Origin: an uncultured delta proteobacterium
Lineage (GTDB): Bacteria; Desulfobacterota; Binatia; UBA9968
Direction: 5' to 3'
NCBI GenBank assembly: GCA_963771465.1
Contig: CAVYTU010000016.1
Coordinates: 96,001-160,000 of the forward strand
DNA: 64,000 nt
Shown: positions 14,595 to 59,117 of the stretch, one piece after another
Layout: every line of letters starts with the position of its first letter
How positions within the stretch are numbered: position 1 is the stretch's first letter
Translations under genes and position numbers: made by a program
Notes under the pieces: model-generated
Databases searched by the model: none
The model's input: the letters and a program-made list of their open reading frames with translations, nothing else
What the model was told of the DNA's origin: nothing

Positions 14595-14689
14595 AAAGTT
14601 CACATAGACAAATCACTCGATCATCGGTCTCCAAATCTTTACGTTGTGCTCTTTGTAGTTAATCGAATCTTAGAAGGAGCAAAGACATC

Positions 14690-15619
14690 ATGGCGACTCA
14701 TTTACCCTGCGGCATCGAACTGCCGCAGGTTTTTTTCGACGGGCCGACGGATATGGAGCATATCCGCAAGTTTGCTACGCGAGCGGAGACGCTCGGTTTC
14801 GATAGTCTTTGGCTGCAAGAGCGGATCATTGGCGACTTCATCATGCTCGAGCCGGTGACGCTGCTCAGTTATGTCGCGGCGATTACGACCAAAATAAAAT
14901 TGGGCACGTCGGTGATTCTTTTGCCGCTGCGCAATCCACTTCAATTGGCTAAAGCGTATTCCACGCTCGACGTGATGAGCGGCGGTCGCGCGATCATGGG
15001 CGTCGGTCTCGGCGGCGGCCATCTCGGTTCGCACGAGGAAGTCTTTGGCTACACGCGCGCAGGGCGGGTGACGCGCTTTAGCGAAGCGGTGCAGATCATG
15101 AAACTTTTGTGGACTGAGCCGAAAGCGCGTTTTCACGGGCGTTATTGGGATTTCGATAACGTCGCGATGGAGCCCAAGCCGATGCAGAAGCCACATTTGC
15201 CGATCATCTTTGGCGGTCATCATGAGAATGCCCTGCGCCGCGCCGTGAAATACGCCGATGGCTGGATGGGCGCGGGCTCGTCGTCTGCGGCATCGTTCGC
15301 TCGCGAGTCGGCGCGGATTCGCGACATGCTCACGGAAGCGAAACGCGATCCGGCGACGTTCCATTTCGCCAAACGGGTTTACATGGCGGTCGACAACGAC
15401 GAAGCGCGCGGCGAACGGCGTATACGCGAATGGTTCGGTGGCCGCTACAAAAACGCTGATCTGGGTCCCAAAGTTTCGATCTGGGGCAGCGTCGCCAAGT
15501 GTACGGAGCAAATTCAAGCGATCGTCAAAGCCGGCGCGCAGCAGGTCGTCTTCAATCCGATGTTCGACGAAGCCGAGCATGTGGAAATCTGTGCCAAGGA
15601 GATCATGCCGCATTTGTGA
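14690..15619 (+). CDS. LLM-class flavin/F420-dependent oxidoreductase
   Basis: AETLGFDSLW, IKLGTSV, LDVMSGGR, PKPMQKPH and ADGW motifs. Confidence 0.9.
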   Translation: MATHLPCGIELPQVFFDGPTDMEHIRKFATRAETLGFDSLWLQERIIGDFIMLEPVTLLSYVAAITTKIKLGTSVILLPLRNPLQLAKAYSTLDVMSGGRAIMGVGLGGGHLGSHEEVFGYTRAGRVTRFSEAVQIMKLLWTEPKARFHGRYWDFDNVAMEPKPMQKPHLPIIFGGHHENALRRAVKYADGWMGAGSSSAASFARESARIRDMLTEAKRDPATFHFAKRVYMAVDNDEARGERRIREWFGGRYKNADLGPKVSIWGSVAKCTEQIQAIVKAGAQQVVFNPMFDEAEHVEICAKEIMPHL

Positions 15620-15689
15620 TGGGTTTAAGCGTGCAGGCTGAACACGGGCAAGTCGCGTTTCAATGTCTCGTCACAGAAAGGCGAGAGAG

Positions 15690-15816
15690 TTTCGAACTGC
15701 CGGACCGTCGTGAAGCTTTACGAAGAGCGATGCGGCAGAATGTTTTGGGTGACGGCCCCGACGGGCCGTTTACACTTCAGGCTAAAGCGTGGGCGGTGCG
15801 CGGAGTTGTACCCTAA
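15690..15816 (+). pseudogene. Probable C-terminal remnant of a SAM-dependent methyltransferase
   Basis: Frame ends ...REALRRAMRQNVLGDGPDGPFTLQAKAWAVRGVVP*, which resembles the DGxxxLxARAWAVRG tail of type-11 methyltransferases. No N-terminal part is present. Confidence 0.45.
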
Positions 15817-15870
15817 ATTTAGAACCTTACCGCCTCAATTTGATTTGTCTGGGCGTGAGGAGAATTGCCA

Positions 15871-16710
15871 ATGACTGATGAAGGGAACCGAAAGCGCGAA
15901 GAAAGCCTGCGCGTATTCAGCCAAGCTGCCACCATTTATGACCGGATCGGGCCGGGAATATTCTCTCACTTCGGTCAACGGCTTGTGGAAGTTGGCGAAA
16001 TTATCGCCGGAACCAATGTGCTCGACGTAGCGGCAGGGAGAGGCGCGTTGCTATTTCCGGCGGCAGCGAAAGTCGGAGCTAATGGTTACGTTACAGGTAT
16101 CGACTTTTCACCGGATATGGTGCGGGAGACGGCTAAAGATATCGAGAGCCGGAAGCTGAATCACGCTGAAATCCGCCAGATGGATGCGGAACAAATGAAC
16201 TTTGCCGATGCGTCCTTTGACTGGGTCCTGTGTGGCTTTGCGCTTTGGATGTTCGCCGATCCTGTGCGGGTTCTGCAAGGATTTCACCGCGTGCTCAAGG
16301 GCGGCGGGCGCGTTGCGCTTAGCACCTGGGCCGCGGACAATCCGTCCCAAACTTGGTGTAATGAAGTGCTTCGACCCTTTGTGTTTGCACCGGCGGCAAA
16401 GAACTTGCCTGCGAAAATCGATGTTAGATTTGACACGCCGTTGCAGATCGAAACCGCGCTACAACAAGCTGGTTTTAAGCACGTCCGAATCACCGTCGAA
16501 GAAAAAGAATTCATCTACGCCGATGAGGAACAGTATTGGTCGTCCCTATGGTCAGCTGGATTCCGCCGGCAACTGGAGAAAATCACACCGGAACTCCTCG
16601 AACAGGCAAAGAGTGAAGTGTTTCGAGAATTACAAACGGTGAAAAAGCCCGATGGATTTCACAAAGTGAATCGCGCTCTATTAGCATTCGGTGCAAAGCC
16701 GATTTTGTGA
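15871..16710 (+). CDS. Class I SAM-dependent methyltransferase (UbiE-like)
   Basis: VLDVAAGRG, GIDFSPDM, DAEQMNFADASFD and RVLKGGG motifs; GAGGAG RBS. Confidence 0.88.
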   Translation: MTDEGNRKREESLRVFSQAATIYDRIGPGIFSHFGQRLVEVGEIIAGTNVLDVAAGRGALLFPAAAKVGANGYVTGIDFSPDMVRETAKDIESRKLNHAEIRQMDAEQMNFADASFDWVLCGFALWMFADPVRVLQGFHRVLKGGGRVALSTWAADNPSQTWCNEVLRPFVFAPAAKNLPAKIDVRFDTPLQIETALQQAGFKHVRITVEEKEFIYADEEQYWSSLWSAGFRRQLEKITPELLEQAKSEVFRELQTVKKPDGFHKVNRALLAFGAKPIL

Positions 16711-16822
16711 CGTGATGCGGTGTCTTTACTCAGTCTTGTTTGGCATGAATGTGGTGGAGACGGTTTCGCGTGTCTTCGAGAAGCGCAGACACGCCTGGCC
16801 GGAGCAATTGAGAGGTTAACCC

Positions 16823-17773
16823 GTGAAAGAAACTTTACAGGCGTTAGCGATGGTTTTTCTACTTCACCCAACACTCCATGCGGCGGACAAGATTAGGATC
16901 GGGTTTCCGGAATTTAACTCTTCGACATTTACTCTGCCCTTGGCGCAGATCAAAGGTTTTTTTCACGAAGAAGGGTTGCAAGCGGAGCTGATCAGGATTC
17001 GTTCGGCGGTGGCGCTGCCGGCGCTGACTAGCGGGGAAATCGACTATCACACTGTCGTCAGTCCCGCAGTCAACGCGGCGCTGCGCGGTATTCCGGTCAG
17101 GGTCGTTGCTTGTTTCACACCGGGACTTACCACCGCGATCATCGCACGCCCCGAGATTAAGTCGATTCAGGAACTCCGAGGCAAGACCATAGGGCTCAAC
17201 AGCATCGGCGGCGGGCTCGAAAGCACGGTACGCATGATGTTGAAGCACTATGGACTCGATCCCGACAAGGATGTCAAATTTCTCGCCACGGGAGGAGTCG
17301 AGACGCGCTTTGCTGCGTTAAAACAAGGATTGACAGTCGCGACGGCGGGATCGACTCCGGTCGACTATCTCGGCAAGAAATTTGGTTACGTGGTGCTTGC
17401 CCGAGCTTACGATCTGTTCAGTTATCCGAACACCGGGCTGGTGGCGAGCGTGAAAAAAATCAAAGAAACCCCCGATCAGCTCAAGCGCGTGATCAGAGCC
17501 GGCATCAAGGCCAATCGCTACCTGCTGCAGAATCGCGACGGAACTATTCAAGTCATGATGCAGTGGATGAGAATCGACAAGGACACAGCGACGGCCACCT
17601 ACGACGGCTCGGTGAAATCATTCAATGACGATGGCAGCGTGTCCGAAGCGGGTCTGCGCATCGCCATCGACGAAGCGCGCAAGGCCGCGAATATCAGCCG
17701 CGAGGTTGCGGTCAACGAAGTCGCGGATTTTTCGATGCTTCGTGAAGCGCAGCGGGAGTTGGGAGTGAAGTGA
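16823..17773 (+). CDS. NMT1/THI5-type ABC substrate-binding protein
   Basis: Signal peptide ending AADKIRIG; GFFHEEGL, GLDPDKDV and ADFSML motifs. Confidence 0.85.
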   Translation: MKETLQALAMVFLLHPTLHAADKIRIGFPEFNSSTFTLPLAQIKGFFHEEGLQAELIRIRSAVALPALTSGEIDYHTVVSPAVNAALRGIPVRVVACFTPGLTTAIIARPEIKSIQELRGKTIGLNSIGGGLESTVRMMLKHYGLDPDKDVKFLATGGVETRFAALKQGLTVATAGSTPVDYLGKKFGYVVLARAYDLFSYPNTGLVASVKKIKETPDQLKRVIRAGIKANRYLLQNRDGTIQVMMQWMRIDKDTATATYDGSVKSFNDDGSVSEAGLRIAIDEARKAANISREVAVNEVADFSMLREAQRELGVK

Positions 17774-17891
17774 GTTTGGATTGTCACTTTTTCGATTCCG
17801 CTCGCGGCAAGTTTTGGATGGGATCGAAGAGTGCCAGGTTAACGTTCACTTGAGTCAGAAGAATTACAGTCGGTAAAAAAGGGAGGGACGT

Positions 17892-19034
17892 ATGGTGAGG
17901 AAAGTTTTTGCCGCGGTGTTGGTCGGCAATGAAGTCCTCGGGTTAAGACTCGGTTTCGCGATGAGCGTCGTATTCGGACTGTTGTTCAGCGCCGGCTGTG
18001 TCGTCCAGCAATCTGGCAAGGCGTCATCCGCGGGACGATTCGAATTCGCGGTCATCGGCGATCAACAGTACACGGCGGAAGATGAAAGGAAGTTTCCCGC
18101 GTTGATGAGCGCCCTAAATGACGCCAACCTGGCCTTCGTCGTGCACGTCGGGGATTTTCAGGGAGATTACAACGGATACACGGAAGGTGACGGCAACCCG
18201 CCGTGCACGGATGAAACCATGGCTCACTTGAAACGAATGTTTCAAACCTCCAAGCAGCCTTTCATCGTCACGCCCGGCGATAATGATTGGACTGATTGTC
18301 ACAAGCGAAAAGTGAAACCATTCGATCCGCTGGAACGGCTCGCCAAAGTTCGGGAAGTATTCTTTTCAAACGACGAGAGCTTGGGCCAGCGAACCATGAC
18401 TCTGACACAGCAGAGCAAAGACCCGAAATATGCCAAGTACCGTGAAAACGCCCGCTGGATCTACGACGACGTATTGTTCGTGACCCTCCATGTCGTTGGC
18501 AGCAACAACAATCTCGGCCGCACGCGGGAGATGGACGCGGAATACGCTGAGCGTAATGAGGCAAATTTGGCTTGGCTGAAAGAAGCCTTCGAAATGGCTA
18601 AGCTTAACGGCAACAAAGGGCTGGTAATTCTTACTCAAGCAAATCCTTTGTTCGAAAGCGTTTGGGCGCCAAGACGGCTGGGCCTTTATTTGTATGTGTT
18701 TCGAGATCAACTTTTGAAAACAACTCCGGACCAGCTCGCCGAGATTAGAAAACAATCTGGCTTTACCGATTTGTTGCGTGCGCTTGAAACGGAGGTTGTG
18801 GAGTTCGCCAAGCCCGTTCTGTTTGTGCATGGCGACACTCATATTTTTCGCATCGATAAACCATTGTTCAACACTAAGAACCGCCGAGGTGTTGAAAATT
18901 TCACCAGGGTTGAAGTATTCGGCACTCCCGATGTCCACTGGGTCAGGATCGTTGTCGATCCGGGCAAGCCGGGATTGTTCACCATCACCCCCGAAACGGT
19001 GGAAAAGAATGTGGTCAATCACTTGGGGAAGTAG
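17892..19034 (+). CDS. Calcineurin-like metallophosphoesterase, probable lipoprotein
   Basis: IGDQQY, HVGDF, PGDNDW and HGDTH motifs; lipobox-like SAGC. Confidence 0.8.
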   Translation: MVRKVFAAVLVGNEVLGLRLGFAMSVVFGLLFSAGCVVQQSGKASSAGRFEFAVIGDQQYTAEDERKFPALMSALNDANLAFVVHVGDFQGDYNGYTEGDGNPPCTDETMAHLKRMFQTSKQPFIVTPGDNDWTDCHKRKVKPFDPLERLAKVREVFFSNDESLGQRTMTLTQQSKDPKYAKYRENARWIYDDVLFVTLHVVGSNNNLGRTREMDAEYAERNEANLAWLKEAFEMAKLNGNKGLVILTQANPLFESVWAPRRLGLYLYVFRDQLLKTTPDQLAEIRKQSGFTDLLRALETEVVEFAKPVLFVHGDTHIFRIDKPLFNTKNRRGVENFTRVEVFGTPDVHWVRIVVDPGKPGLFTITPETVEKNVVNHLGK

Positions 19035-19190
19035 CAAATTCTGTCATGTCGCCAATCGCTTGCAAGGCTGAGTGGCGTAAGAAGGAATTGCCGATTAAAT
19101 AATTTTGGATTTTCGATTGTCGCTCGAATGGCGGCAGAAAACGAAAATATGAAAGTATTTTAACTTTGCGCCGTGCTGCTGAGGAGGATT

Positions 19191-20146
19191 ATGATTAAGA
19201 TGTTCATCGGTGTGCTCGCGTTCTTTTTTCTCGATGCGCCGGCTCAGGCGGCCGATAAAATCAGAATCTCCATGACTGGCTTCGCCGGCCAATTCATGAC
19301 TTTTCCTTTGGCGCAGAAGCGCGGCTTTCTAAAAGAAGAAGGGATCGAGGCTGAGATCATTCGCATTTCGGCTGCGGCGGGTCGAGCTGCGTTGACCGAT
19401 GGCGAAGTGGATTATTCGACCGGTATCGGCGGGACGGCGATAGGCGGCGCGTTGTCAGCGGGATTCCGATCCGTGTTGTCGCCTGCTTTGTGCCCGCACC
19501 GGTGCTCGGCATTGGTGGCGCGGCCGGAATATCAAAACTGTTCAGTCGCTCAAAGGCAAGACTATCGCGATTCTTATCCCGGCGGCGTCGCGCATTTCGC
19601 CGCCCGGGCGATCGCTGGCATTTCGGTCTCGATGCCGAAAAGGAAATAAAGTATCTCGCCGTCGGCCCGCCCGATGCCCGCTATGCCGCGCTGACTCAAG
19701 GCTTGGTCGAAGCGGCGGTGCTCGGGCCGCCGCTGGATTTCGAGGCGCGCAAGCAGGGTTTCAATATTCTTGCTCGAGCCAACGAAATAATGGTGCTTCC
19801 GGAGACCGGTTTGGTCGCCAGCGTAAAGAAAATTCACGAGAAACCTGACGAGATCAAGCGAGTCATTCGCGCCGGCATAAAAGCCAATCGCTACATTCGC
19901 GCCAACCGCGACGGCACGATTCAGTTCTTGACCGAGTGGCTCAAGCTCAATCGCGAATCTGCCACGGCGACCTACGACAGCGTCGTGCGGGTCTACGATG
20001 AAGACGTCAACGTATGTGACAAAGGGCTGCGTCTGATGATCGACGAAACCAAGAAAACCATAAAGCTTAGCCGCGACATACCTTACGATGAAATTGCCGA
20101 CCTGTCGATTCTCCGCGAGGCGCAGAGGGAGCTGGCTAGCAAGTAG
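19191..20146 (+). pseudogene. NMT1/THI5-type SBP with several frameshifts (assembly error or pseudogene)
   Basis: ORFs 19173-19649 and 19490-20146 plus intervening frames join into a paralog of 16823-17773 (GIPIRVVACF, KRVIRAGIKANRY). Indels cluster at about 19455-19620. Confidence 0.75.
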
Positions 20147-20213
20147 CGGAATATTTCAATGACCAAGGCGACGAACGACCAAATTCCATGGTGACGCAAG
20201 AGGGGGACGATCG

Positions 20214-21082
20214 ATGAAGAACTTGCCGAGCATAGCGGCGAAGATGAAAGTTCGTGCGATGAACTCAAAAACGTGATTAGAATATTGGCCGTCGGCGGTT
20301 TGCTCTTGTTGTTGTTGGTCGCCAAACCGTTCGTGATCGTGCGCGCGGGCACGGTCGGAGTGGTTTACAGTTTCGGTTCGATTGTCGGTCAGGTGGACGA
20401 GGGGTTTCATCTGATTTGGCCTTGGTGGTTCATAACCCACACGGATATCAAGGTGCAGAGAGCCGTGTTGGATAAACTGCCATCCTTTAGCGCGGAGACG
20501 CAAGATGTCTTCGTCAGAGCCAGCCTCAACTATCAGGTGTCACCCAAAGCAGTGCAGACATTGTTTCGCACGGTCGGACCGGACTATTTTCATGTTTTGA
20601 TCGAGCCGCGCGTGGCGCAGAATTTCAAGGACGAAACGGTCAAGTATAAGAGCGTCGACATCGCGCCTAACCGTGAGAAGATAAGGCAGGCGGTCAGGCA
20701 ACGACTCGAAGCTGAACTGTCGCCGTACTCGATCCATATTATCGACTTGCTGTTGGACAACGTGGATTTTAGCGCAGCCTTCAAACAATCCATTGAAAAC
20801 AAGCAAATCGCAACGCAGAAGGCCCTCGAGCAAGAGCAGCTCGTCTCCGCGGCAAAATTTTCCGCGCAGCAGCGAGTCGAAACGGAAAAGGGCGAAGGCG
20901 AGGCCAAGTTGGCCCGGGCAGAAAAAGAAGCACTCGCCAACCAAAGATTATCGGCATCGCTAACACCCTTGCTGGTCCAGCACGAGATGATCGACAAGTT
21001 GTCCGAAAAAATCCAAATCATGGTGGTGCCGCAAGGATCGAACTTTCTAATGCAGCTACCGAATATAGCGGCGCAGAAATGA
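20214..21082 (+). CDS. SPFH/prohibitin (band 7) family protein
   Basis: FVIVRAGTVGVV, EGFHLIWPW, FSAAFKQSIENKQ. The ORF track start is GTG 20273; ATG 20214 joins in frame if one A is added to the A5 run at about 20267. Confidence 0.85.
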
Positions 21083-21177
21083 TTGGATTGAGGACCGGTT
21101 GTGTGACCATGGATGGCGGCGTGGTGCGCGGGATTTGACGATAGAAGCATTGACGGCAAGCGAGATAGGAGACGACC

Positions 21178-21624
21178 ATGAGAGACAAAGCGATCGTCTT
21201 CGCGGCCGGCGAGGGCAAATTGCTCAGCGCTCGCGGCAGCGCGATGTTTTTCAAGGCGACTCACGCCAGCACCAACGGCGCGTTCTCTTTCATGGAACGG
21301 ACGCTGCCACCGGGCGGTAGAAAGCCGCCGCCGCATATTCACACCGATTGCGAAGAAGCATTTTATGTTCTCGCAGGTGAGATTGAATTTTTTCTTGGCG
21401 CCGATACGGTCATCGGCCGGCCCGGTTCATTCGTGCATGTGCCGGGCGGTGTCTCGCACACGTTTGGGAATGCCGCAACTGTGCCCTCGCGTCTGCTGAT
21501 CATTCACGCGCCGGCGATGGATTCGTACTTTGAAGAGTTGCAGGACCTCTGGTCCGGGCAAGTCCCGCCGAGCCCGGACGATGAAAGAGCGTTGATGAAA
21601 CGGCACGGCATGGAGCCGGGGTGA
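21178..21624 (+). CDS. Cupin domain protein
   Basis: PPHIHTDCEEAFYVLAG...PGGVSHTF motif. Confidence 0.88.
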   Translation: MRDKAIVFAAGEGKLLSARGSAMFFKATHASTNGAFSFMERTLPPGGRKPPPHIHTDCEEAFYVLAGEIEFFLGADTVIGRPGSFVHVPGGVSHTFGNAATVPSRLLIIHAPAMDSYFEELQDLWSGQVPPSPDDERALMKRHGMEPG

Positions 21625-21794
21625 ATCAATGAGTCATAGCTGGATTCATAAGATCTCACGCAAGGCGTAATGGGAAGCAGCTGACTTTCGTGCATCATAG
21701 GAAAACTTGTTTCAGTCCGTTGACACACGTTGTGATGCCGGTTAATTCCAGAGATTAAAACACCAAGAAACCACACTGCTAAAGGAATGACACA

Positions 21795-22835
21795 ATGCTA
21801 GACGAAAAACTTCGGATCTCACCGACTTGCTATCACGTGCTTCATCTTGTGCCGGTCATGACGGCGCATGAGATGAATTTTTTCTACGATGAGGGATTGC
21901 GCACCGCGGACGGGTCACTAGCCTACGAGATCTCGACCAACTCCATGGTGCCCTTTGGCTTGGAAAAGTTGGGCATATCTCAGGCGATGAAGGAAAAATC
22001 GGTCGACATCGCGCTCGACGTGCAGACGCGCACGGTTTTTTACCAGCGCTCGCGGGGTGCTGATCTCTACATCATCGCCGGTTGGCGTAACCAGCATATC
22101 CACGTCTGGGTGAGCCCGCCGCACATCAAATCACTGCAAGAACTGAAAGGCAAAAAAGTCGGCATCAGCGATTTCGGCAGCAACCGCCATTGGGGCATCA
22201 CCATCTGGCTGCACAAGGCGGGTCTCGATCCTAACCATGACGTCGAGTTCGTGCGCGGAATTTATCACCCGGTCAATATCGACGCATTGCGCTCAGGCAA
22301 AGTTGACTGCGCGCCGGTGGCGGTGTGGGAAGCCGAAGAGCTTAAGAAAGAAGGTTTCAATGCGCTGGTAACTCTGCAGCAGCAGTATCCCAACGGCCGT
22401 CCGGAGCGCATCATTGCCGCCACCGGCCGCATTCTCGAAGAAAAGCCGGAAATGGTAAAAGGGTTTCTGAGAGCGATGATTCGCTCTTACTGGTTCATGC
22501 GCGATATGCCGAAAAATTTTGAATATCTCCACAATCTGGAAAGACGGCTGCGTTGCGCCAGTCCGGACCCCGAGGAAAGACATATTAAGTTCGCCGGCGA
22601 ATCGCCGCAACATCTTGAGGCAATGCCATTTCCAATCGATGGTCTAGCGACCGGCTTTGAGGATTTACTGCGCGAAGAGAAGGAGATCGGCGATTTGAAC
22701 TACGACGTGCCGCCGATCAAAGACGTGTCGGCTCAAGATTTGGTAACCGCGGCTTACAACGAGCTGCGGGCGCGGCCGGAGCTGCAAGAAGAGTTTGCCC
22801 GGGTCAGCGCCGCGGCGAAGCGCTGGGGTTATTAG
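21795..22835 (+). CDS. NMT1/THI5-fold protein without a signal peptide
   Basis: FFYDEGL, LKGKKVGIS and GLDPNHDV motifs. It starts directly at the first beta-strand, with AAAGGA RBS. Confidence 0.8.
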   Translation: MLDEKLRISPTCYHVLHLVPVMTAHEMNFFYDEGLRTADGSLAYEISTNSMVPFGLEKLGISQAMKEKSVDIALDVQTRTVFYQRSRGADLYIIAGWRNQHIHVWVSPPHIKSLQELKGKKVGISDFGSNRHWGITIWLHKAGLDPNHDVEFVRGIYHPVNIDALRSGKVDCAPVAVWEAEELKKEGFNALVTLQQQYPNGRPERIIAATGRILEEKPEMVKGFLRAMIRSYWFMRDMPKNFEYLHNLERRLRCASPDPEERHIKFAGESPQHLEAMPFPIDGLATGFEDLLREEKEIGDLNYDVPPIKDVSAQDLVTAAYNELRARPELQEEFARVSAAAKRWGY

Positions 22836-22860
22836 AAATCCTTTTCGGAAAACCGATATC

Positions 22861-22915
22861 TCACCACGAAGGACAGGAAGATCACGAAGATGTCGTAGGG
22901 TGCGCCGCGCGCACC
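22861..22915 (+). repeat. 9-bp periodic half-element plus GTAG-type REP
   Basis: TCACCACGAAG GACAGGAAG ATCACGAAG matches the left arm of 36079-36165. It is followed by GTAG-GGTGCGC-cgc-GCGCACC (22895-22915). Confidence 0.7.
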
Positions 22916-22940
22916 GGTCCGCCTCGCGAAAGCCGGACGA

Positions 22941-23621
22941 TCAGGGCTGAACGCTTCGCGCGCCGGCCGGAGCGACTGCCGCATGAATCGTTGCGGTTGT
23001 CGGTTGCAGCGTGATCATTTCGGATTGCGTCATCGTGACGTTGTAACGGTAACCGAAACCCCGGTAGAGCGAAAAAGACAGGAGGGTTTCCGTTTCGTCC
23101 TTTGCTGCGGTGCAGTCCATCGGCATGTAGACGTAATAATCGCGAATGCTGAACCCCGTCACCGCGCACTGCACGCAGCCGCGCGACGCGACTCCTGTCA
23201 CGATGACCCGGCCGTCGCCTGGGCGAATGTCGAGCCGCTGTAACCACTCTTTCATGTCGGTTTGGTAGAAACAGTCGTGGGTATGTTTAACCACTACCGG
23301 CTCGTCCGGAGCCGGTTTTAGGGCGTCGATAAACTCCGCGTCCCACGTTCCCTCAACTTTACGCACGACGTTTTCGAATACGGTAAATTCCAAAGCGTCG
23401 CGTTTGCGCACCGATTGGGTGTGCAGCACGCGTCCGCCGCTCGATCGCACGTAGTCTCTCAGCCGCACGATGCGCGGAATGATTTTTTCCACTGGCTCGC
23501 CCATGTACTGCGGACCATTGGGATGAGCCGAGCAGTTCTCCATGTCGACGATTACCAGGAGAGTTTTTTTAGCATCTAGATCGACCGGCACAGGATCGGG
23601 ATATTTAATGTCCACCAGCAT
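22941..23621 (-). CDS. Isochorismatase-family cysteine hydrolase
   Basis: Triad D (VDMEN), K (KHTHDCF) and C (GVASRGCV); GGAGG RBS before ATG 23621. Confidence 0.88.
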   Translation of the reverse strand: MLVDIKYPDPVPVDLDAKKTLLVIVDMENCSAHPNGPQYMGEPVEKIIPRIVRLRDYVRSSGGRVLHTQSVRKRDALEFTVFENVVRKVEGTWDAEFIDALKPAPDEPVVVKHTHDCFYQTDMKEWLQRLDIRPGDGRVIVTGVASRGCVQCAVTGFSIRDYYVYMPMDCTAAKDETETLLSFSLYRGFGYRYNVTMTQSEMITLQPTTATIHAAVAPAGARSVQP

Positions 23622-23650
23622 GGATCGTTCCTCCAATCAGAGATGGTCAG

Positions 23651-24727
23651 TTACCGAATACCGAAAATTTGATTGAACTGGTCGATGAGTTGTTTGGTAT
23701 TGGCGCCGTAGGATGCGGGATTTACAAAGGTAAAGTCCTTGACGAACAAATCCTGTAGCGAACCCCGCTGTTTGATCCCTTTGCGGATACTCAGTCGCGG
23801 GATTTCGGCGAGTTTGGTTTGCCCCTCCTGTGACAATATCCAATCGGCGAACAGAATCGCCGCGTGTGGATGGGGCGTGCGCGCCGCGATCGATAGCGAG
23901 TTGGGCTCGCCCGCGTAAGGTTCGAAGATGCGAAAATCGATCGGTGCGCCTTGTGCTTTGAATTCGACAACGCGCCGCCCGCGCGCCGCCAGAGATATCC
24001 CTGATTCGCCAGCCAACATCAATTGAACTCTCATGCGGCTGCTCGCTCCCGGCATATGCAGCTCTTGCTTGGCGAGCCCGCGCATGAACGCCAGACCTTT
24101 TTCCTGCCCCATAGAATCGAGCATGACGCTAAACCAGTCATAATCTTCCGTGCCGAGATTCATCTTGCCCTTATATTTTGGCTGGAGAAGATCTTGATAG
24201 CTGTTCGGGATGTCGGGGCCTTTAATCAACTTGGTTTGGAAGGCCACGACGATCGGCGTGACTTCAAAGCCCGACCAATAGCCTTCCGGATCGTAAGATC
24301 CCTTTGGCATCGCCTGCAGTTCCGGCGACAGATAGGCAGTTGATAATTTTGACTGCTTCAACTGCCACATTTCTGAGGGCGCGGTTGCGACGATATCCAC
24401 CGCGAAACGGCCGGCCCGGGCTTCAGTGGAAGCCTTGAGCAGCGCGCTTCTCGGCGTGCCGCGATAAACTTCCGTCTTGACGAAGGGATAACTTTTTTCA
24501 AACGCGGCCATCACCTTCGGGTTATCCTGATCGCTGAGCGAGGTGTAGATGACGAATTGCCCCTCTTTGCGGGCGCCGTCTTCGATGGTTTTTTTTCTTT
24601 GCGCCGGTGACTGCGTCGAAATTGTCTTGATGACTTCCTGGACCGTCGCCGCGAAACATGGACTCGATAAGATGGTGCCGAGAAAAATACCGACCAACGG
24701 AACCAAACTAGATAGCCGCGCTTTCAA
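23651..24727 (-). CDS. AfuA/FbpA-type extracellular solute-binding protein
   Basis: Signal peptide; ARKEGQFVIYTS, SYQDLLQPKYKG and PHPHAAILFADWILS motifs. Confidence 0.85.
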   Translation of the reverse strand: MKARLSSLVPLVGIFLGTILSSPCFAATVQEVIKTISTQSPAQRKKTIEDGARKEGQFVIYTSLSDQDNPKVMAAFEKSYPFVKTEVYRGTPRSALLKASTEARAGRFAVDIVATAPSEMWQLKQSKLSTAYLSPELQAMPKGSYDPEGYWSGFEVTPIVVAFQTKLIKGPDIPNSYQDLLQPKYKGKMNLGTEDYDWFSVMLDSMGQEKGLAFMRGLAKQELHMPGASSRMRVQLMLAGESGISLAARGRRVVEFKAQGAPIDFRIFEPYAGEPNSLSIAARTPHPHAAILFADWILSQEGQTKLAEIPRLSIRKGIKQRGSLQDLFVKDFTFVNPASYGANTKQLIDQFNQIFGIR

Positions 24728-24772
24728 AGTGATCTCCTTTTCTGTTCTCCGTGGCTCTGAACGCTCGAATAG

Positions 24773-25681
24773 TTACAACACGCAAAATGGCAGCGGCGGA
24801 GTACCGGGCTTGCCAAGCTGAGTTACCAGCAACGTTGTTTCGCTGACCGCGGCGGTCGGTGAGTATGGCGCACCCGCAGGGAAAAACATGCAGGAAACCG
24901 GTTTGTAGTTTTCGCCGTCGTACTCTACTTCACCCTCGAGAACTAACCGTACCTGTTGGAAATCAACTTTGCCGGCGGGCGTTTGCGCGCCTTTCTCCAT
25001 GCGCATCATCTTGATGTTGGGACCGGTTTCATTGAAGTAGCCGAGATGTTTCACGCTCACACCGGGCGCGCCTTCGAGCGGCACCCATGAATAATTGGCA
25101 TGGCGCATGATGATGTAACTGCGATAGCGCGGCTGAGGATAGTCGAGCTTGTGGCCGACGATATATTCCTGGACCGCTTCGAAGCCATCTTGTTTTTTGC
25201 CCTCGGGGGAAATGAACAGTCCCTTCTCAAACTGGCCGACTTGTTTCTCGCGCATTTCTTTCTGCGCCGCCATTACCTCTGACCACACCGGCGTCGGAAA
25301 TCCTGACGGACCCGGAAAATGGAGCGAGATGCGCACGTTGTGATCGCATTTTTCGGCGGTCTTCGTCGGCCCGTAATAGACTCCTTCGGGCACGTAAACG
25401 CAGTCGCCTTCTTCCATAACGTCTTTGCCGTAACATTCGGCACCGCGGTAATAAAAACGCACGGCCTCGTCCGTGTGGCGATGGCGTGGATTGTAGCGCT
25501 CTGGCGTGTAGGTGGTGATTCCTGCTCTCATTCTAATCCCATGCTCCGGGTCGAAGAAGCCATAGATCTCGCTCTGTCTCCCGCCACCTCGGTGCGTGCC
25601 AGCTTGTTCATCGCCTTCCTCTTGGCGCACGACGACTGGCCGTGTGATAGGACCTTTCAATGGATCGACTTTTTCCAACAT
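24773..25681 (-). CDS. Bicupin-like protein of unknown function
   Basis: PRHRHTDEAVRFYYRG...YVPEGVYYGP motif, then a second cupin-like half. Confidence 0.65.
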   Translation of the reverse strand: MLEKVDPLKGPITRPVVVRQEEGDEQAGTHRGGGRQSEIYGFFDPEHGIRMRAGITTYTPERYNPRHRHTDEAVRFYYRGAECYGKDVMEEGDCVYVPEGVYYGPTKTAEKCDHNVRISLHFPGPSGFPTPVWSEVMAAQKEMREKQVGQFEKGLFISPEGKKQDGFEAVQEYIVGHKLDYPQPRYRSYIIMRHANYSWVPLEGAPGVSVKHLGYFNETGPNIKMMRMEKGAQTPAGKVDFQQVRLVLEGEVEYDGENYKPVSCMFFPAGAPYSPTAAVSETTLLVTQLGKPGTPPLPFCVL

Positions 25682-25737
25682 GCTTTCCTCCAAAACTTGT
25701 AGTAATCAGTAAACGGTTATCATTTCGAATGTTTCAC

Positions 25738-25895
25738 TGTCAAGGTAACTTGGCATTCCTCGTAGTCGCAGCGTGAATCTGACAGGGCTTAACGGCAACA
25801 TTAATATGTCAGGGTGAAGAGATGACAACCCTGACGATGAAAGAAGAGAAACGGCTAGACGCAAATTCAACGACTGTATCGTAGCGAGTTGACTA
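25738..25895 (+). mobile_element. Remnant of an ISNCY/IS1202-like element (left end and transposase N-terminus)
   Basis: ATG 25822 gives MTTLTMKEEKRLDA-(shift)-IQRLYRSELT, resembling ISNCY transposase N-termini as I recall them. There is an upstream TGT-starting putative end and a GTCAGGGT...ACCCTGAC hairpin over the start codon. Confidence 0.55.
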
Positions 25896-25942
25896 GGGGG
25901 TACTCGGAATCAGCGAGCGGTCTGCGAGAATGATTATCGCAG

Positions 25943-26191
25943 TTATTTTTTACCGATAAAATAATCAGCGTTGATCTTGGTGTACTCTTTCCATTTATCC
26001 GGCACTTCGTTGTCGACGAAAATCGCGTCGACCGGGCAGGCCGGAATGCAGCCGCCGCAGTCGATGCATTCGTCCGGATCGATGTAGAGCATCGAGTCAG
26101 CGTCGGTCCCGTGGATGCAGTCCATGGGACAAACATCGATGCAGCCTTTGTCTTTAACTCCTATGCAGGGTTGTGTGATCACGTAGGTCAT
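25943..26191 (-). CDS. Dicluster (7Fe/8Fe FdxA-like) ferredoxin
   Basis: MTYVITQPCIGVKDKGCIDVCPMDCI...CIDCGGCIPACP. Confidence 0.93.
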   Translation of the reverse strand: MTYVITQPCIGVKDKGCIDVCPMDCIHGTDADSMLYIDPDECIDCGGCIPACPVDAIFVDNEVPDKWKEYTKINADYFIGKK

Positions 26192-26255
26192 TGTTTTTTC
26201 AACACTCCAAGCGCACCGGGCCGGTGTTTATGATCCATCGAAAAATTGGTTCCAG

Positions 26256-27452
26256 CTATCCAATATGCAATTTCTTGTGCTGTAATTTTGCATGCTTCGC
26301 GGTGCAACCGGGAATGGTGCAGTACACCGGTTCGGGTGCGTTGTCGTAGCCGAGCCACTTCATGTGTTTCCAAGGCCGCTTGCCCCAGATGAGATCGTCG
26401 ATCCAGAGTAACGGCTTGACGACCAGGACTCGAAGCTTACGCGGGGTCACCTTAACCGACCACATCGCCAAATCATGGTACCAAGTATCGGCTTTGTTGT
26501 AACAGCAAGAAGAAACGCAGACGACGCAATTGGTCCATTCCCCACGGCCGGCGAGCTTGTATTTGTAACAACTCTCGACGTTGATGGCGTATTTCTCCAC
26601 GCCATTCACCACGGTCTTGTCGCCGAACGGGATGCTGTGCGACGGACAAGTGCGCGCGCACTTCTTACAATACTTGCAAAATTCCTCGACGCCGATATCC
26701 ACAGGTTGGTCCACCGTCAGCGGTATGTCGCAGGTAACCACCGTCAAATGCAGACGCGAACCGTACTTTTCATGAATCAGCATGCCGTGGCGCCCAAGCT
26801 CGCCCAGTCCGGCGTTGATCGCCAACGGTATCGGATTAACCGAGGAGCGGCCATGATGGTGCGCCGTAGCGGGATAACCCATTTCTCGAATGTAGGAGGC
26901 CAACTGGAAGGTTGGCACGATGGCGTGGTTGTTGCCGAACTGATACTCGGAGTCGGAGATTTTGCTGTTATTGCTCATGTAACGTTCGTAGGAGCTTTCG
27001 AAACCGAGACAGATGGCATAGCGATGCGGCAGGTTGATCGGGTCGCCAGCCTTCTCGCCCATGGCGGGGTTGCCGCGAGCCCGATGGGAATAGACATAGA
27101 GCGGATCGAGTTCGCAGATACCGACCACGGTGGCGCCGAGGTATTGGGCGACGCCTTTGATTTGCTTTGCCATCTCAGCCGGATCGTCCACCGGGATCTT
27201 ATTAGGATTGACCTTTCCCTCGGGCGCCTGCTTCATGATTTGCTGCAGCGTGTTGTTCGGATCGCCTTCGCCGCCGCCGCCGAAGAGACGCCGGAAAGGA
27301 TCGCTGCCAACGCGATTCTTCCTCCAGTCGCGCAGCCGAGTGCCGAACTCGCCACGGTCGACTTTGGGATGCGGCGTTTCGCGCTCGTCGAGTTGCCGCT
27401 GTGGACCAACGATACGGTAGCTTCTCGGGGTATTTTGTTTTGATTCCAGCAT
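26256..27452 (-). CDS. Reductive dehalogenase-like cobalamin/2x[4Fe-4S] protein with no TAT leader
   Basis: IKGVAQYLGATVVGI, QLASYIREMGYPA, AINAGLGELGRHG, YGSRLHL.VVTCDIPL..D.P, FCKYCKKCARTCP and NCVVCVSSCCYN motifs; AAGGAG RBS. Confidence 0.85.
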   Translation of the reverse strand: MLESKQNTPRSYRIVGPQRQLDERETPHPKVDRGEFGTRLRDWRKNRVGSDPFRRLFGGGGEGDPNNTLQQIMKQAPEGKVNPNKIPVDDPAEMAKQIKGVAQYLGATVVGICELDPLYVYSHRARGNPAMGEKAGDPINLPHRYAICLGFESSYERYMSNNSKISDSEYQFGNNHAIVPTFQLASYIREMGYPATAHHHGRSSVNPIPLAINAGLGELGRHGMLIHEKYGSRLHLTVVTCDIPLTVDQPVDIGVEEFCKYCKKCARTCPSHSIPFGDKTVVNGVEKYAINVESCYKYKLAGRGEWTNCVVCVSSCCYNKADTWYHDLAMWSVKVTPRKLRVLVVKPLLWIDDLIWGKRPWKHMKWLGYDNAPEPVYCTIPGCTAKHAKLQHKKLHIG

Positions 27453-27648
27453 GGGAATATCTCCTTACCGCTGCTCTTAAGAGTGAATAGGGCCTATGGC
27501 GCGGAATATACGCCCGCTCGACCAACAACGTCAAGGCCAGCTCGGCCGAGCGAGAATCCCGCTTGACAGTTGCGCGCGGGGAGGATTAGAACTCCCGCAG
27601 TTCATGGCAGGCGTCGAATTTGGTGCACGAAACCAGGAGAATTGTATT

Positions 27649-28728
27649 ATGCGCGTCATCAATAGCCATTGCGGTCCGATTTTGTCGTCGTTGTTGGCGC
27701 TATTGCTCTACGCGCAGCCTGTCACCGCACAGACCGAAGAGAAAGTACTAGAAGAAATCAATCAGTTGCCCGAAGCGGAGCGCCAAGCTCGCTTGATTGC
27801 CGGCGCGAAAAAGGAAGGCGCGGTTACCTGGTACGTGGCGATGAACCGGGCTTTCGCCCAGGATTTGATCAACGGATTCGAAGCGCAATATCCGTTTCTA
27901 AAAGTCAACGCCCTAACCGGAGGCGGTGGGATGTTGCTGAACAAAGTTTTAACCGAGCACCGCGCCAAATCCCACATCTACGACGTTTTCAACACCCGCA
28001 GTATGACGGTGAACACGCTTAGAAAGGCCGGCGCCATCGCGCGCTACCGTAGTCCGCTGCGGGCGTCGTTACGCGATGGTTTCGCCGATAAGGAAGGTTT
28101 CGTTAACGGCATTTTCGCCACACCGCTGGTCTATATTTACAATTCTAAACTGGTCAATCGGAAAGAGATGCCGACTAGCGTCGAGGAACTCACCCAGCCC
28201 AAGTGGCTCGGCAAGATGGCCGTCGATGACGAGTCCTACGATTGGCTTGCGGCGCTGATGGATTACTACGGCGAAGCGAAAGGTTTGGAGCTTGCCGCCA
28301 AAGTCGGCCAGCAGCAGCTGCAACCGCGGCGCGGCTCGACCTTGATCACCCAACTCATTGCCGCCGGAGAATTCCTTCTGGAAATAGACGGCCATCATCA
28401 GGAAGCGATCGCCAAGAAAAAAGCCGGCGCACCCATCGACTATGTTTTTCCGCAGCCATTTGTGCCGGTGAAATCTATGGTACCGATTTATCTATCGTCG
28501 CGCCCGCCTCATCCACATGCGGCGGCGCTGATGGCCGATTTTCTCATGTCCAAACGCGGTCAAGATATCATGTATGGTCACGGCCGTTGGGTCGGCCACA
28601 AAAGCATCATCGGCAAAGGACCAGATGACATCGGCGATCGCAAAGTGGTCATCCCTTCGCCGGAAAAATGGGGCGACAGGTATCAGGAGCTGATCGGCAA
28701 CTTCAATAAATTGATTCTACGCAAGTGA
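27649..28728 (+). CDS. AfuA/FbpA-type extracellular solute-binding protein
   Basis: Signal peptide; AKKEGAVTWY, ELTQPKWLG and PHPHAAALMADFLMS motifs; AGGAG RBS. Confidence 0.85.
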   Translation: MRVINSHCGPILSSLLALLLYAQPVTAQTEEKVLEEINQLPEAERQARLIAGAKKEGAVTWYVAMNRAFAQDLINGFEAQYPFLKVNALTGGGGMLLNKVLTEHRAKSHIYDVFNTRSMTVNTLRKAGAIARYRSPLRASLRDGFADKEGFVNGIFATPLVYIYNSKLVNRKEMPTSVEELTQPKWLGKMAVDDESYDWLAALMDYYGEAKGLELAAKVGQQQLQPRRGSTLITQLIAAGEFLLEIDGHHQEAIAKKKAGAPIDYVFPQPFVPVKSMVPIYLSSRPPHPHAAALMADFLMSKRGQDIMYGHGRWVGHKSIIGKGPDDIGDRKVVIPSPEKWGDRYQELIGNFNKLILRK

Positions 28729-28762
28729 AGTAGACTGACGAAAACCCGAAAGGCACAGACGG

Positions 28763-29236
28763 TCAGCTTTTCAACCGGCCACCGCGTACAGTGGCGCCGA
28801 CGACGATCCCGGCGCTCACCAAGACCAGATTTTTGATGATGTATTGTCCTTCGAGTGTCGGGGCATAGGGAAGCTGGCTAAAAACTTCCTGCGGGAAAAT
28901 AAACAGCGGCGTAATCGTTCCCGCCATCTGTAGCCAGAGGAGCAATAGCGTGGCGCGCAAATAGACTCCCAAGATCAAACCCAGCCCGACGGCGCATTCC
29001 CAAACGGCGAGTAGGGTCAATGCCATTGGCGGCGGTACCCAGCCAAAACTGAGCACTTGTATCGTTCGCGCCGCCAAATCTTCCGCCGGACTCAAGCCGG
29101 GAAAGAATTTCAGAAAGCCGAACCAGAGAAAGATTATACCGACGCTCAGGCGCAGCAACGTAATGCCGTGGCGCGCCATATGGGCGGTTAGATTCTTGTC
29201 GAGCCGGTCTAAACGAGTCATCAGGGTGTTCACCAA
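28763..29236 (-). CDS. DoxX/DUF417-like membrane protein
   Basis: LLRLSVGIIFLWFGFLKFFPGLSPAE...TLEGQYIIKNLVL. Confidence 0.85.
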   Translation of the reverse strand: MVNTLMTRLDRLDKNLTAHMARHGITLLRLSVGIIFLWFGFLKFFPGLSPAEDLAARTIQVLSFGWVPPPMALTLLAVWECAVGLGLILGVYLRATLLLLWLQMAGTITPLFIFPQEVFSQLPYAPTLEGQYIIKNLVLVSAGIVVGATVRGGRLKS

Positions 29237-29432
29237 AGCTCCTTCGCCAAGTCTCTAATCAAAGCAAATCTCTTGATCCATGCAATAGGCGTCGGCGAAT
29301 AGGAACGGGCTTCCCCATGCTTCTGGTCATCGTGCGATTCTTGGCAAGCCGTGAAGCTTGTTATACAGTCCGGCCTAGTTCGCGGAACATTTTTTCCGCG
29401 CACGGCGCAACAGCCAGGGCAGGGGGATTCGT

Positions 29433-30464
29433 ATGGAAGTAAAGTCGGTCAAGGAACGGAACACCGAATTGATGATGCATAGCGTCAAGTTCGCCAAAGA
29501 CGAACAGGCGCGGCGCAAGGGGCAGGAGATTCTTTTCAAATGGCCGGATATCGAGAAGCAACTGGGCGAGCATAAACATATTTACGTCGTCGACGCGCGG
29601 CTCGGTTCGAACAATCACACCCATCGCCTTTGGTACGATGTCATTCCGCCGCACACGGAGGAAGGCCAGGAATGGCGCACCCTCGGCCATCGCCACACAG
29701 TAGAAGCGATCATTTATTTTCTTAAAGGCCACGGCCACAGCATCATCGACGGCGTACGCTACGACTGGGGACCGGGCGATTTGTTGAGCGTGCCGATGTT
29801 TTCTTGGCACCGCCATGTCAACGACGGCGATGAGCCGGTGCTGCGCATCGCGTCGACCACAGGACCGTTGTCATTGGGCTTGGGTCAAGCGGTTTACGAA
29901 GACGAACGCTATCCTGAGTTCTGGGTTTATGCTCAGGAAGGCGAGGACGCGCGCAAAACATTGATCCCAGGCGGCGGATCGGCCGAAACCGGCAAGGTGG
30001 CCAACAACCGCGCCGCGGAAATGTACGCCGAGCAGGTCGGTTTCGCCATGCACGAAGAACAGCTCAGGCGGAACAGCAAAGTTTTGGTGAAACAGAAAGA
30101 CCTGGTTTTCGAGCCGACAGCCATGGGCAACGTCGCTTACGTCGTCGATCCGCGCATCGGTTTTCACAGCAAGGCTCTTGGCGTGGTCATGGCGGAAATA
30201 CCTCCCGGCAAACGCTCCGGCGCCCATCGGCATCTTTACGATGAAATCGATTTGATCGTCGGCGGCAAGGGCAAAGTGATCGTCGAAGACAAGTCGTTCG
30301 ATTTCGACACCCTGGACGTGCTGTCGATTCCCGTCTTTCAGTGGCATCAATATTTCAACACCGGCACCGAGCCACTGCGCATTCTCGGTATCAACACGCG
30401 GCTAGCGATGGACAATCTCGGTTTGTCGTTGACGCACCAGGGCGAGAAGGCGGATTATGTCTGA
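29433..30464 (+). CDS. Bicupin (gentisate 1,2-dioxygenase-like fold)
   Basis: HRHTVE...PMFSWHRH and HRHLYDE...PVFQWHQY motifs. Confidence 0.8.
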   Translation: MEVKSVKERNTELMMHSVKFAKDEQARRKGQEILFKWPDIEKQLGEHKHIYVVDARLGSNNHTHRLWYDVIPPHTEEGQEWRTLGHRHTVEAIIYFLKGHGHSIIDGVRYDWGPGDLLSVPMFSWHRHVNDGDEPVLRIASTTGPLSLGLGQAVYEDERYPEFWVYAQEGEDARKTLIPGGGSAETGKVANNRAAEMYAEQVGFAMHEEQLRRNSKVLVKQKDLVFEPTAMGNVAYVVDPRIGFHSKALGVVMAEIPPGKRSGAHRHLYDEIDLIVGGKGKVIVEDKSFDFDTLDVLSIPVFQWHQYFNTGTEPLRILGINTRLAMDNLGLSLTHQGEKADYV

Positions 30465-48275: not shown

Positions 48276-48517
48276 GCGAACCGAATAATCAAACTCGCAT
48301 CCCTCGAAGAAGTTGGCTCTCCGCTTCGCGTTTTCGAGCAATCGTTTCACACCGAGCTGAACATCACTGTCTTAGTAACGGCGGTGCCAACATGGATTTT
48401 TGACTTACCTATCTGATTGGGCCCTTTACAAATCAAGCCGAGGCGATAGACTTCACGCTTTCCACATTCGGATTTTGCTTTGCCGTGCTCCGGGTTTTGT
48501 TTCTCAAGGAGGACGTT

Positions 48518-49381: not shown

Positions 49382-49428
49382 GGAATGGCGCTCTCGGCAA
49401 AATTTTTTGAAGCAAAAGGCAAAATCCT

Positions 49429-51544: not shown

Positions 51545-51653
51545 AATTGCTGGCTGGGGTTGGCGTGATGGGCGCATTCTGAACTGTTCCTTGGTGGGAC
51601 GGTGTGTGATAAATACCGGAAGCATATCGGGTCGTGGAATCACGGGATAAACT

Positions 51654-55343: not shown

Positions 55344-55435
55344 CGGGTGCAAGTGGTGATGCAAAGTGCGATCGAGAGCGAAAATTCTTAGAGGAGTTTC
55401 GTAGCTATTTGGGTAAATAGGGCGAGGGTGAAAAA

Positions 55436-55829: not shown

Positions 55830-55875
55830 ACGATTAAGATTAATTCAACGGAGTTCCGAAGAAAGGGGAGACGAC

Positions 55876-59116: not shown

Positions 59117-59117
59117 G

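Follow-up and report, generated by a model that had tools for sequence, protein, structure and literature searches.

The two lobes of a type-II binding protein both turn the C-terminal ends of their strands towards the ligand cleft. THI5 is defined by a pyridoxal phosphate (PLP)-binding lysine, a substrate histidine in lobe 1 and a Cys-cluster motif, and DszB, the 2'-hydroxybiphenyl-2-sulfinate desulfinase, has a catalytic cysteine near its first strand with histidine and arginine partners. The ATPase subunits of N-methylhydantoinase (NMHase), acetone and acetophenone carboxylase and caprolactamase work as ATPase-plus-partner enzymes. The role of GlmL/MutL beside glutamate mutase has, to our knowledge, never been established, and we know of no solved or described complex of a GlmL-type ATPase with a binding-fold protein. 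A review lists glutamate mutase (MutL family) beside diol dehydratase reactivase and EutA in the actin superfamily (PMC5597319). Here we describe two genes, copies 1 and 2, in a 64,000-nucleotide stretch of the genome of an uncultured member of the Binatia (the window), together with a GlmL/MutL-family gene in the same stretch.

The products of the two genes are cytoplasmic and belong to type A, a separate and highly conserved branch of the type-II binding-protein fold of NMT1, SsuA and THI5; the leaderless NMT1/SsuA-fold family to which they belong is referred to as T. The T proteins are not transporter components. The partner conserved with them is an ASKHA (actin-fold) ATPase that is paralogous to GlmL/MutL. 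T and GlmL are probably part of a previously undescribed ATP-dependent system. Judging from synteny and structural models, T may be the cytoplasmic, ligand-binding and perhaps catalytic half of a two-component system that runs on ATP, the other half being a recruited GlmL-type ATPase; to this tentative reading we assign a probability of roughly 45%. A search of the literature returned no functional study of GlmL, no pair of GlmL with a binding protein and nothing on the T family. The central features of the window are as follows.

21795–22835, forward strand: copy 1, a type-A leaderless protein of the NMT1/SsuA fold; open reading frame (ORF) of 346 amino acids with the C-terminus ...RWGY
21782–21786, forward strand: Shine-Dalgarno-like AAGGA, 8 nucleotides ahead of the copy 1 ATG, read directly
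21828–21845, forward strand: codons for Cys12-Tyr13-His14-Val15-Leu16-His17 of copy 1, between strand 1 (residues 6–10) and the first turn of helix 1 (residues 15–26)
55876–56886, forward strand: copy 2 as assembled, type A; ORF of 336 amino acids, member of a GlmL-linked orthologue group
59221–60666, forward strand: GlmL/MutL-family ASKHA ATPase of 481 amino acids, the proposed partner (PF13941, 489.5 bits)

Leaderless proteins of the NMT1/SsuA fold

Copies 1 and 2 are 70% identical across 337 residues. Both belong to the Pfam family NMT1 (PF09084; 68.9 bits for copy 1 and 59.2 bits for copy 2 at a cut-off of 20.5), and both fall outside TIGR01728 (SsuA_fam), with 46.9 and 56.7 bits respectively, far under the cut-off of 163.5. 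The PF09084 match covers residues 58–240 only and the N-terminal motif region therefore lies outside it. This motif reads PTCYHVLH and PTCYHMLH in the two copies. Of the shared blocks listed in the preliminary description of this DNA, SMVPFGLEKLGISQAMKEKSVDIALDVQ, YIIAGWRNQH, YPxGRPER and LEAMPFP were identical in both; the terminal RWGY, and with it the end at 56915, is reached by copy 2 only in a shifted frame.

The same description had both genes starting at strand 1 behind good ribosome-binding sites and with no hydrophobic leader, and closer inspection confirmed this. An in-frame TAA is located at 21780–21782, five codons ahead of the copy 1 ATG, and a leader sought in all three upstream frames was found to be encoded in none of them. 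Copy 2 is preceded by a Shine-Dalgarno-like GGGGAG at 55865–55870. A hydrophobic stretch does occur upstream of copy 2, in a different frame, and is the C-terminal membrane tail of the preceding DUF2007-type gene, intact in the related locus L048, and not a leader. A leader recoverable from upstream, for example through a frameshift, was thus looked for and not obtained for either copy.

The genome containing the window (6.9 Mb, 99.4% complete) was scanned by tblastn, and 247 NMT1-type open frames of at least 250 amino acids were counted. A hydrophobic N-terminus, taken as a Kyte-Doolittle mean of at least 2.0 over 11 residues within the first 60 (a rule of our own, not SignalP), was observed in none of the 17 T family members versus 181 of the 230 other frames, so that the difference first noted between the two genes and the other NMT1-type proteins of the window extends to the whole genome. 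The 17 members comprise seven type-A copies (68–100% identical to copy 1, motif PTCYHxLH), one paralogue at 44% identity (motif PACYHALH) and nine type-B copies (30–33% identity, motif GN[GA]CWHxxH), seven of these within 25 kb on contig 15. All 17 start at strand 1 and 16 end in Gly-Tyr, which copy 2 has in its shifted frame. In other assemblies the closest orthologue of copy 1 (L021) is 91% identical to it, and a relative of copy 2 (L048) is 98% identical to that copy. Out of 71 orthologue ORFs, 65 carry C-x-H-x-x-H, one carries C-x-D-x-x-H and five lack the anchor. The start Met is exactly the same in 48 of the 66 ORFs with the anchor; in the remaining 18 an alternative start codon extends the frame upstream, and a hydrophobic stretch was seen by eye in only one of these extensions (L043). 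Since the lack of a leader holds across paralogues and orthologues, copies 1 and 2 and their relatives are, as judged from sequence, cytoplasmic.

Gene content agrees with this. In the synteny sample of 78 related loci from 49 assemblies, almost all of them metagenome-assembled genomes of Binatia, no NitT/TauT-type permease was found among the recurrent clusters or the directly adjacent singletons, and no permease or ATPase of this (TauBC) type was found at the two window loci or at the paralogue loci of the genome. The absence of neighbouring permeases, put forward at the outset as a check, is therefore borne out. Fused 575-residue permeases do occur in 10 loci, where they accompany SBP_bac_6/8 genes.

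Further NMT1-type frames of the genome without a hydrophobic N-terminus were also noted, near 74661 and 176621 on contig C19, near 367363 on C13 and near 708253 on C17 (reverse strand). These have a different start motif, ...S-x-S-H-x-P-L-W..., and the genome thus holds at least one more leaderless NMT1 subfamily. The seven clustered type-B paralogues lie at C15:579720–604835 (loci L017 and L018), four of them in tandem, among genes for Rieske/LigXa-type oxygenases, cupins (bicupins), an isochorismatase-type hydrolase, SDR and SBP_bac_6 proteins.

The GlmL-type ATPase as proposed partner

A module recurs in the 78 loci in which T is followed, often after one or two TctC genes, by a PF13941 'MutL' gene, and the copy 2 locus of the window has the form T, TctC, TctC, GlmL. 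GlmL was present within the fetched flank of 31 of the 78 loci (31 of the 49 assemblies) and, among the 43 loci whose 6-kb flanks were complete, in 20. The window GlmL scored 495.7 bits against NCBIfam NF040745, above the equivalog cut-off of 475, and is the only PF13941 gene in the genome. No match to glutamate mutase E (Met_asp_mut_E, PF06368) was found in this 99.4%-complete genome, and methylaspartate ammonia-lyase gave only weak partial MAAL_C matches (29 bits at most), with no sign of a methylaspartate pathway.

The association was followed through a class sample of 121 genomes, T being taken at E ≤1e-25 and type A at an identity of at least 62%. GlmL was found in 13 genomes, T in 8 and type A in 5, all in the window's family. 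In all five type-A genomes GlmL lies at most 2.6 kb away on the same strand, and G011 and G105 each have only one T gene, which adjoins GlmL. G002 contains two GlmL genes, one in a canonical GlmL-GlmS-GlmE (B12-binding, MutE) operon on contig C44 (locus L160, 4082–7409) and the other beside T (C23:12004–14617). When 78 type-A rows were placed in a tree with the 44% paralogue, a single long branch, as root, GlmL-linked rows held 25 of the 37 positions of the copy-2 clade as well as the basal branches. On this account the linkage looks ancestral, the unlinked paralogues, copy 1 included, being apparently derived. A third context for the GlmL ATPase family was observed in G118 (contig C1; L159, 6306–10601), where the gene for a C-terminally extended GlmL-family protein of 605 residues precedes an unassigned ORF of 388 residues and, after that, a DUF6754 protein.

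A complex of T and GlmL was modelled with the natural pair from L048, the T of which is 98% identical to copy 2, using alignments of our own in three runs with three controls. The median interface score (ipSAE) was 0.63 and that of the best control 0.01; in calibration 116 of 157 solved complexes and 2 of 215 mismatched pairs attained this mark of 0.63, counts that are only rough with alignments of our own. The runs shared at least 78% of contacts and the partners had a predicted local distance difference test score (pLDDT) of at least 86. GlmL has no sequence relative in the PDB at E ≤0.01, which makes it unlikely, by that test, that the predictor reproduced a similar complex already known to it. 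The model supports, rather than demonstrates, binding. The predicted contact involves residues 59–63, 84–92, 212–219 and 309–315 of T, that is lobe 1 and the C-terminal helices, and residues 95–100, 120–122, 143–152, 199–203, 291–295 and 386–402 of GlmL, including the conserved TGGxDGGD loop.

The residues predicted to be in contact show specific conservation on both sides. Identity of T to the L048 protein at contacts versus elsewhere was 0.94 versus 0.79 for GlmL-linked type A and 0.88 versus 0.71 for unlinked type A, and 0.21 versus 0.32 for type B and 0.36 versus 0.31 for distant members. The predicted contact residues are kept in all seven type-A paralogues of the genome, copy 1 included. 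On the GlmL side all 27 of the 27 T-linked copies have the same residue at V96, P97, G98, L99, T100, F121, K122 and T152. The single mutase-linked paralogue departs from them at five to six of these eight positions (V96, P97 and T100 being the same), and one GlmL from another context at all but V96. An AlphaFold2 (AF2) model of GlmL was of mediocre quality (pLDDT 71.1). Its best Foldseek matches were NMHase (9h03), acetone carboxylase (5m45_B), acetophenone carboxylase Apc (5l9w_B) and caprolactamase (6yra_A), at E values from 3e-6 to 5e-4 and template modelling (TM) scores of 0.29–0.44, with diol dehydratase reactivase at rank 12, behind the hydantoinase/carboxylase ATPase subunits. In its predicted fold the partner accordingly resembles the ATP-hydrolysing subunits of N-methylhydantoinase, acetone/acetophenone carboxylases and caprolactamase.

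Under the proposed mechanism TctC or other solute receptors encoded alongside would deliver a small organic acid, probably anionic, and T would hold it in its cleft. T would dock by lobe 1 and its C-terminal helices on the nucleotide-cleft side of the ATPase, and hydrolysis of ATP would then either activate the T-bound ligand, e.g. by phosphorylation, or drive T itself. The seven type-A paralogues of the genome would probably all rely on the one GlmL while binding different ligands.

Several observations weigh against this scheme. Copy 1 and five other type-A paralogues have no GlmL nearby, none is found near the nine type-B copies, and tblastn of the window GlmL against 59 metagenome loci of distant (HYH-type) members gave no match, most of these contigs being short and 26 longer than 5 kb; dependence on GlmL is therefore not a property of the whole family. 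The synteny comes almost wholly from one Binatia family, the members of which are kin and not independent, and a fusion of T with GlmL, sought among proteins of 607–2000 residues, was not found at E ≤1e-10, which is weak evidence. The complex is itself a model with a calibration that holds only roughly, and the GlmL fold assignment comes from a mediocre model and matches of low TM score. Its predicted interface excludes the cleft, so that the route of ATP to the ligand is not explained. Finally, conservation of the interface is not a test independent of the predictor, which favours conserved surfaces, and the mutase-linked GlmL entered the comparison as one copy only.

Motif, fold and competing explanations

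The preliminary description had proposed that the motif after strand 1 is the catalytic or metal site of an enzyme. In its full form this alternative makes T an autonomous cytoplasmic enzyme that uses Cys12, His14 and His17 and works alone in the manner of DszB, THI5 or MqnA, the adjacency of GlmL being of pathway-level significance only. The evidence bearing on it comes first from conservation. A search of protein-universe representatives gave 1734 matches at E ≤0.001 and 58 at ≤1e-30; an alignment of 32 full-length members (A1), 30 of them from outside the window, was built, and position-wise conservation was counted in 70 type-A, 9 type-B and 63 distant sequences. In the alignment His14 and His17 were conserved to at least 90% and Cys12 was not. 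His14 is present in 69/70 type-A, 9/9 type-B and 62/63 distant sequences, and His17 in 70/70, 9/9 and 55/63. Position 12 is Cys in 70/70 type-A and 9/9 type-B sequences; in the 63 distant members it is His in 32, Asn in 20 and Gly in 4, and Cys is not among the three commonest residues. Residues kept as the same residue at 80% or more in all three sets include His14, His17, Trp97, Arg98, Pro203, Arg230, Arg253, Glu261, Pro280 and Gly283, to which type A adds Cys12, Asp75, Asn99, Asp126 and Arg202/205. Four of the 30 non-window sequences (P0135, P0173, P0217 and P0218) have leaders, either hydrophobic or of lipoprotein type, and, by eye, keep an H-x-H-x-x-H-like motif.

The histidine pair is on these grounds a signature of the family and the cysteine a trait of subfamilies. 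Since leader-bearing members retain the motif, it is not confined to cytoplasmic proteins and is compatible with plain binding outside the cytoplasm. Motif invariance, proposed at the outset as a check, consequently holds for the two histidines and fails for Cys12 beyond types A and B, and a DszB-like cysteine nucleophile as a family feature had to be abandoned, the cysteine being fixed in two subfamilies only and the motif being carried by proteins with leaders.

The AF2 model of copy 1 was of high confidence (pLDDT 94.4, predicted TM score 0.92) and places the Cys12–His17 motif on the loop and first helical turn after strand 1. From topology the motif loop, with His14 and His17, would point into the cleft between the lobes, and Trp97-Arg98 on the hinge strand would line the cleft alongside. 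Cys12, Asp75, Asn99, Asp126 and Arg202/205 would likewise be located at the cleft in type A. The lobes of MqnA, as described in one report, also turn their C-terminal strand ends to the ligand cleft (PMC9672406). In structural comparison of T, VIA Z scores for binding proteins were 21.0 (3qsl), 20.8 (CmpA), 20.0 (SsuA, 3uif), 19.4 (ThiY) and 19.3 (PqqT), for the CmpC regulatory domain 18.8–18.9, and for enzymes 20.0–19.6 (Thi5), 16.1 (DszB), 16.0 (MqnD) and 13.7 (4,5-dihydroxyphthalate decarboxylase); the fold ranking by Foldseek agreed. The enzymes are not favoured over the binding proteins as fold relatives of the T model.

Set against these results, the autonomous enzyme is unlikely, at somewhat less than half the weight of the two-component reading. 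It draws on the leaderless state and on unusual conservation, the best 120 of 452 homologues of T being 68–90% identical compared with 27–31% among the three leader-bearing NMT1 proteins of the window, which were rightly called divergent from the start. It also draws on the invariance of Cys12 in types A and B (79/79), on the enzymes among the fold relatives and on the use of this fold in enzymes, as documented in the report cited above. The paralogues sit amid catabolic genes (Rieske/LigXa, cupin, isochorismatase, UbiD, amidohydrolase_2 and CoA-transferases), yet no single enzyme-type neighbour is common to them. The replacement of Cys12 in distant members, the retention of the motif behind signal peptides and the equal closeness of the model to pure binding proteins all speak against it, as does the predicted GlmL-contact surface of type A, which is more conserved than the rest of the protein even in unlinked paralogues.

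On a par with the autonomous enzyme, and equally doubtful, is a non-catalytic cytoplasmic solute sensor or carrier, like a free-standing NrtC/CmpC C-terminal regulatory domain, that reports or buffers a metabolite and modulates GlmL or a transporter. Cytoplasmic CmpC/NrtC regulatory domains were the second-best PDB matches of the family profile (E 2.4e-17 to 1.6e-15) and lie close by Z score. The expansion to 7 + 1 + 9 copies in the genome is receptor-like, T is often co-encoded with TctC and other solute receptors, and exported relatives keep the motif. T is, however, neither fused to nor adjoining an NrtC-type ABC (ATP-binding cassette) ATPase, and its conservation is far above that of the genome's receptor families. 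The residues proposed to line the cleft are moreover invariant across paralogues, which fits one shared chemistry better than many sensed ligands.

Considerably less probable still is that T is a new cofactor- or metal-dependent enzyme on a solute-binding fold, the [C/H/N]-x-His-x-x-His turn of which would ligate the cofactor, with a duplicated GlmL, drawn from glutamate mutase, as its dedicated ATP-dependent activase or reactivase. The turn after strand 1 of T would sit where B12-binding domains carry D-x-H-x-x-G. Were this alternative true, it would give a first functional handle on GlmL-type proteins. An ordinary exported ABC substrate-binding protein (SBP) with its start or leader lost through annotation or assembly error, as the public names of homologues and the apparent one-nucleotide indels of the assembly might suggest, is effectively refuted by the in-frame stop five codons upstream of copy 1, the lack of a leader in any of its upstream frames, the common start of 48/66 orthologues and all 17 paralogues, the TIGR01728 scores and the lack of a NitT/TauT permease nearby.

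Frame breaks, neighbouring genes and known systems

The remaining features at and around the two genes are listed below.

56884–56915, forward strand: one-nucleotide deletion, TT having become T, with the final 10 codons of copy 2 moved into another frame (...ALKKAEARWGY, stop at 56913–56915), from comparison with L048
55436–55753, forward strand: small gene upstream of copy 2, of DUF2007 type in relatives (Pfam DUF2007 match on the cluster representative)
56954–57994, forward strand: TctC (Bug) solute receptor, the first of the pair that separates copy 2 from GlmL (PF03401)
58067–59116, forward strand: TctC solute receptor, second (PF03401)
22941–23636, reverse strand: isochorismatase-family hydrolase, convergent with copy 1 and kept in the copy-1 clade (PF00857)

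Relative to L048 the window lacks one T at about 56884, where CGCTTGAAG becomes CGCTGAAG; a TGA arises in consequence and copy 2 ends 10 residues early. A contig from run X16, an RNA library, reads ...CAGCGCT before 56884, which is the undeleted TT form. None of the short read contigs over the window spans 56884, and the deletion may lie in the organism or in the assembly. Contigs from X15 and X16 cover parts of copy 2, and as such libraries may hold DNA no claim of expression is made. The small upstream gene is affected as well; its hydrophobic C-terminal tail runs out of frame to about 55828 in the window and is intact in L048 (801–1229, 142 residues including the tail). The DUF2007-type cluster lies directly upstream of GlmL-linked T in 5 of the 6 loci in which it occurs. 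A signal-peptide NMT1-type protein at 19173–20146 (forward strand) is also split, into overlapping ORFs 19173–19649 and 19490–20146. Together these make three apparent frame breaks in 64 kb, which suggests indel errors of the assembly.

TctC genes are present in 40 of the 78 loci and stand directly downstream of T on the same strand in 25. Divergently upstream, 17 loci have two family-III coenzyme A (CoA)-transferases and an enoyl-CoA hydratase. Copy 1 is surrounded by genes for a cupin, the isochorismatase-type hydrolase and SBP_bac_6; the arrangement with the hydrolase is the same in L021, and an isochorismatase gene is also near T in L022, L074 and L075. Another paralogue of the genome adjoins a molybdenum hydroxylase with TctCAB. 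Distant members adjoin exported NMT1 and SBP_bac_1 proteins, LigB, cupin and VOC dioxygenases.

Other observations concern the surroundings of T. The only ComA-like gene of the genome (PF02679, phosphosulfolactate-synthase family) ends 4 nucleotides before the 44% paralogue (C17:443128–445161; L016, 6957–9026); ComA-like genes also flank T in L060, L070 and L071, and in L027 one is clustered with GlmL and T. Within the window, 48485–62891 and 13443–30461 show an extreme density of orphan receptors (NMT1, TctC, SBP_bac_3, SBP_bac_6 and phosphonate-type), mostly without adjoining permeases. At 26256–27452 (reverse strand), 3.4 kb from copy 1, lies a leaderless gene of the reductive dehalogenase family (TIGR02486, 163.0 bits at a cut-off of 160.35) that adjoins a small 2x[4Fe-4S] ferredoxin gene at 25943–26191 (reverse strand). 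From its sequence the product may be a cytoplasmic, catabolic-type dehalogenase.

Hundreds of T proteins are named 'ABC transporter substrate-binding protein' by annotation pipelines although they are cytoplasmic and come without a transporter, and this mislabelling inflates estimates of transport capacity for soil Binatia and hides the function of the family. A protein-atlas search returned only clusters with NMT1 names. The window also offers a GlmL paralogue that occurs without any mutase and has a different, small, soluble and well-modelled partner; such a simple pair of proteins lends itself to direct tests of ATPase function, binding and ligand. Should T and GlmL form an ATP-dependent enzyme, the hydantoinase/carboxylase-like ATPases would gain a new type of partner, and the list of binding proteins turned to catalysis a new entry.

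Among known systems, T shares with the substrate-binding proteins SsuA, TauA, ThiY and CmpA the two-lobe type-II fold with a C-terminal helical extension and membership of Pfam NMT1, and its closest structure is 3qsl, an uncharacterised exported protein of Bordetella. Unlike these, T has neither a signal peptide nor cognate permease and ATPase genes, is at most 18% identical and carries motifs of its own, namely [C/H/N]-[Y/W]-H-x-x-H, GWRN, GRPxR and the C-terminal GY. The hydroxymethylpyrimidine phosphate (HMP-P) synthases THI5/THI13 are cytoplasmic like T and of the same fold and Pfam family. T differs from them by an identity of 16–17% and by the lack of a Cys cluster, its three cysteines being scattered at 12, 172 and 254; THI5, in turn, has no ATPase partner. 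DszB is likewise a cytoplasmic enzyme on this fold and T has Cys12 in the strand 1–helix 1 loop, which may correspond to the site of the DszB cysteine; DszB is the more distant fold match, with 14% identity, and Cys12 varies in the wider T family.

The C-terminal domain of NrtC/CmpC is, like T, a cytoplasmic NMT1/NrtA-like solute-binding module (profile E 2.4e-17), but it is fused to an ABC ATPase, whereas T is free-standing as a 346-residue ORF and no fused form was found, which is weak evidence. The window GlmL passes the equivalog cut-off of the GlmL that accompanies glutamate mutase, yet its genome is without glutamate mutase. T and GlmL share with the hydantoinase-A-type enzymes the arrangement of an ASKHA ATPase encoded beside a second protein. 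Unlike in both of these systems the neighbour is of binding-protein fold and not a B12 mutase or a HyuB-type subunit, and the T-linked GlmL copies carry invariant surface residues of their own.

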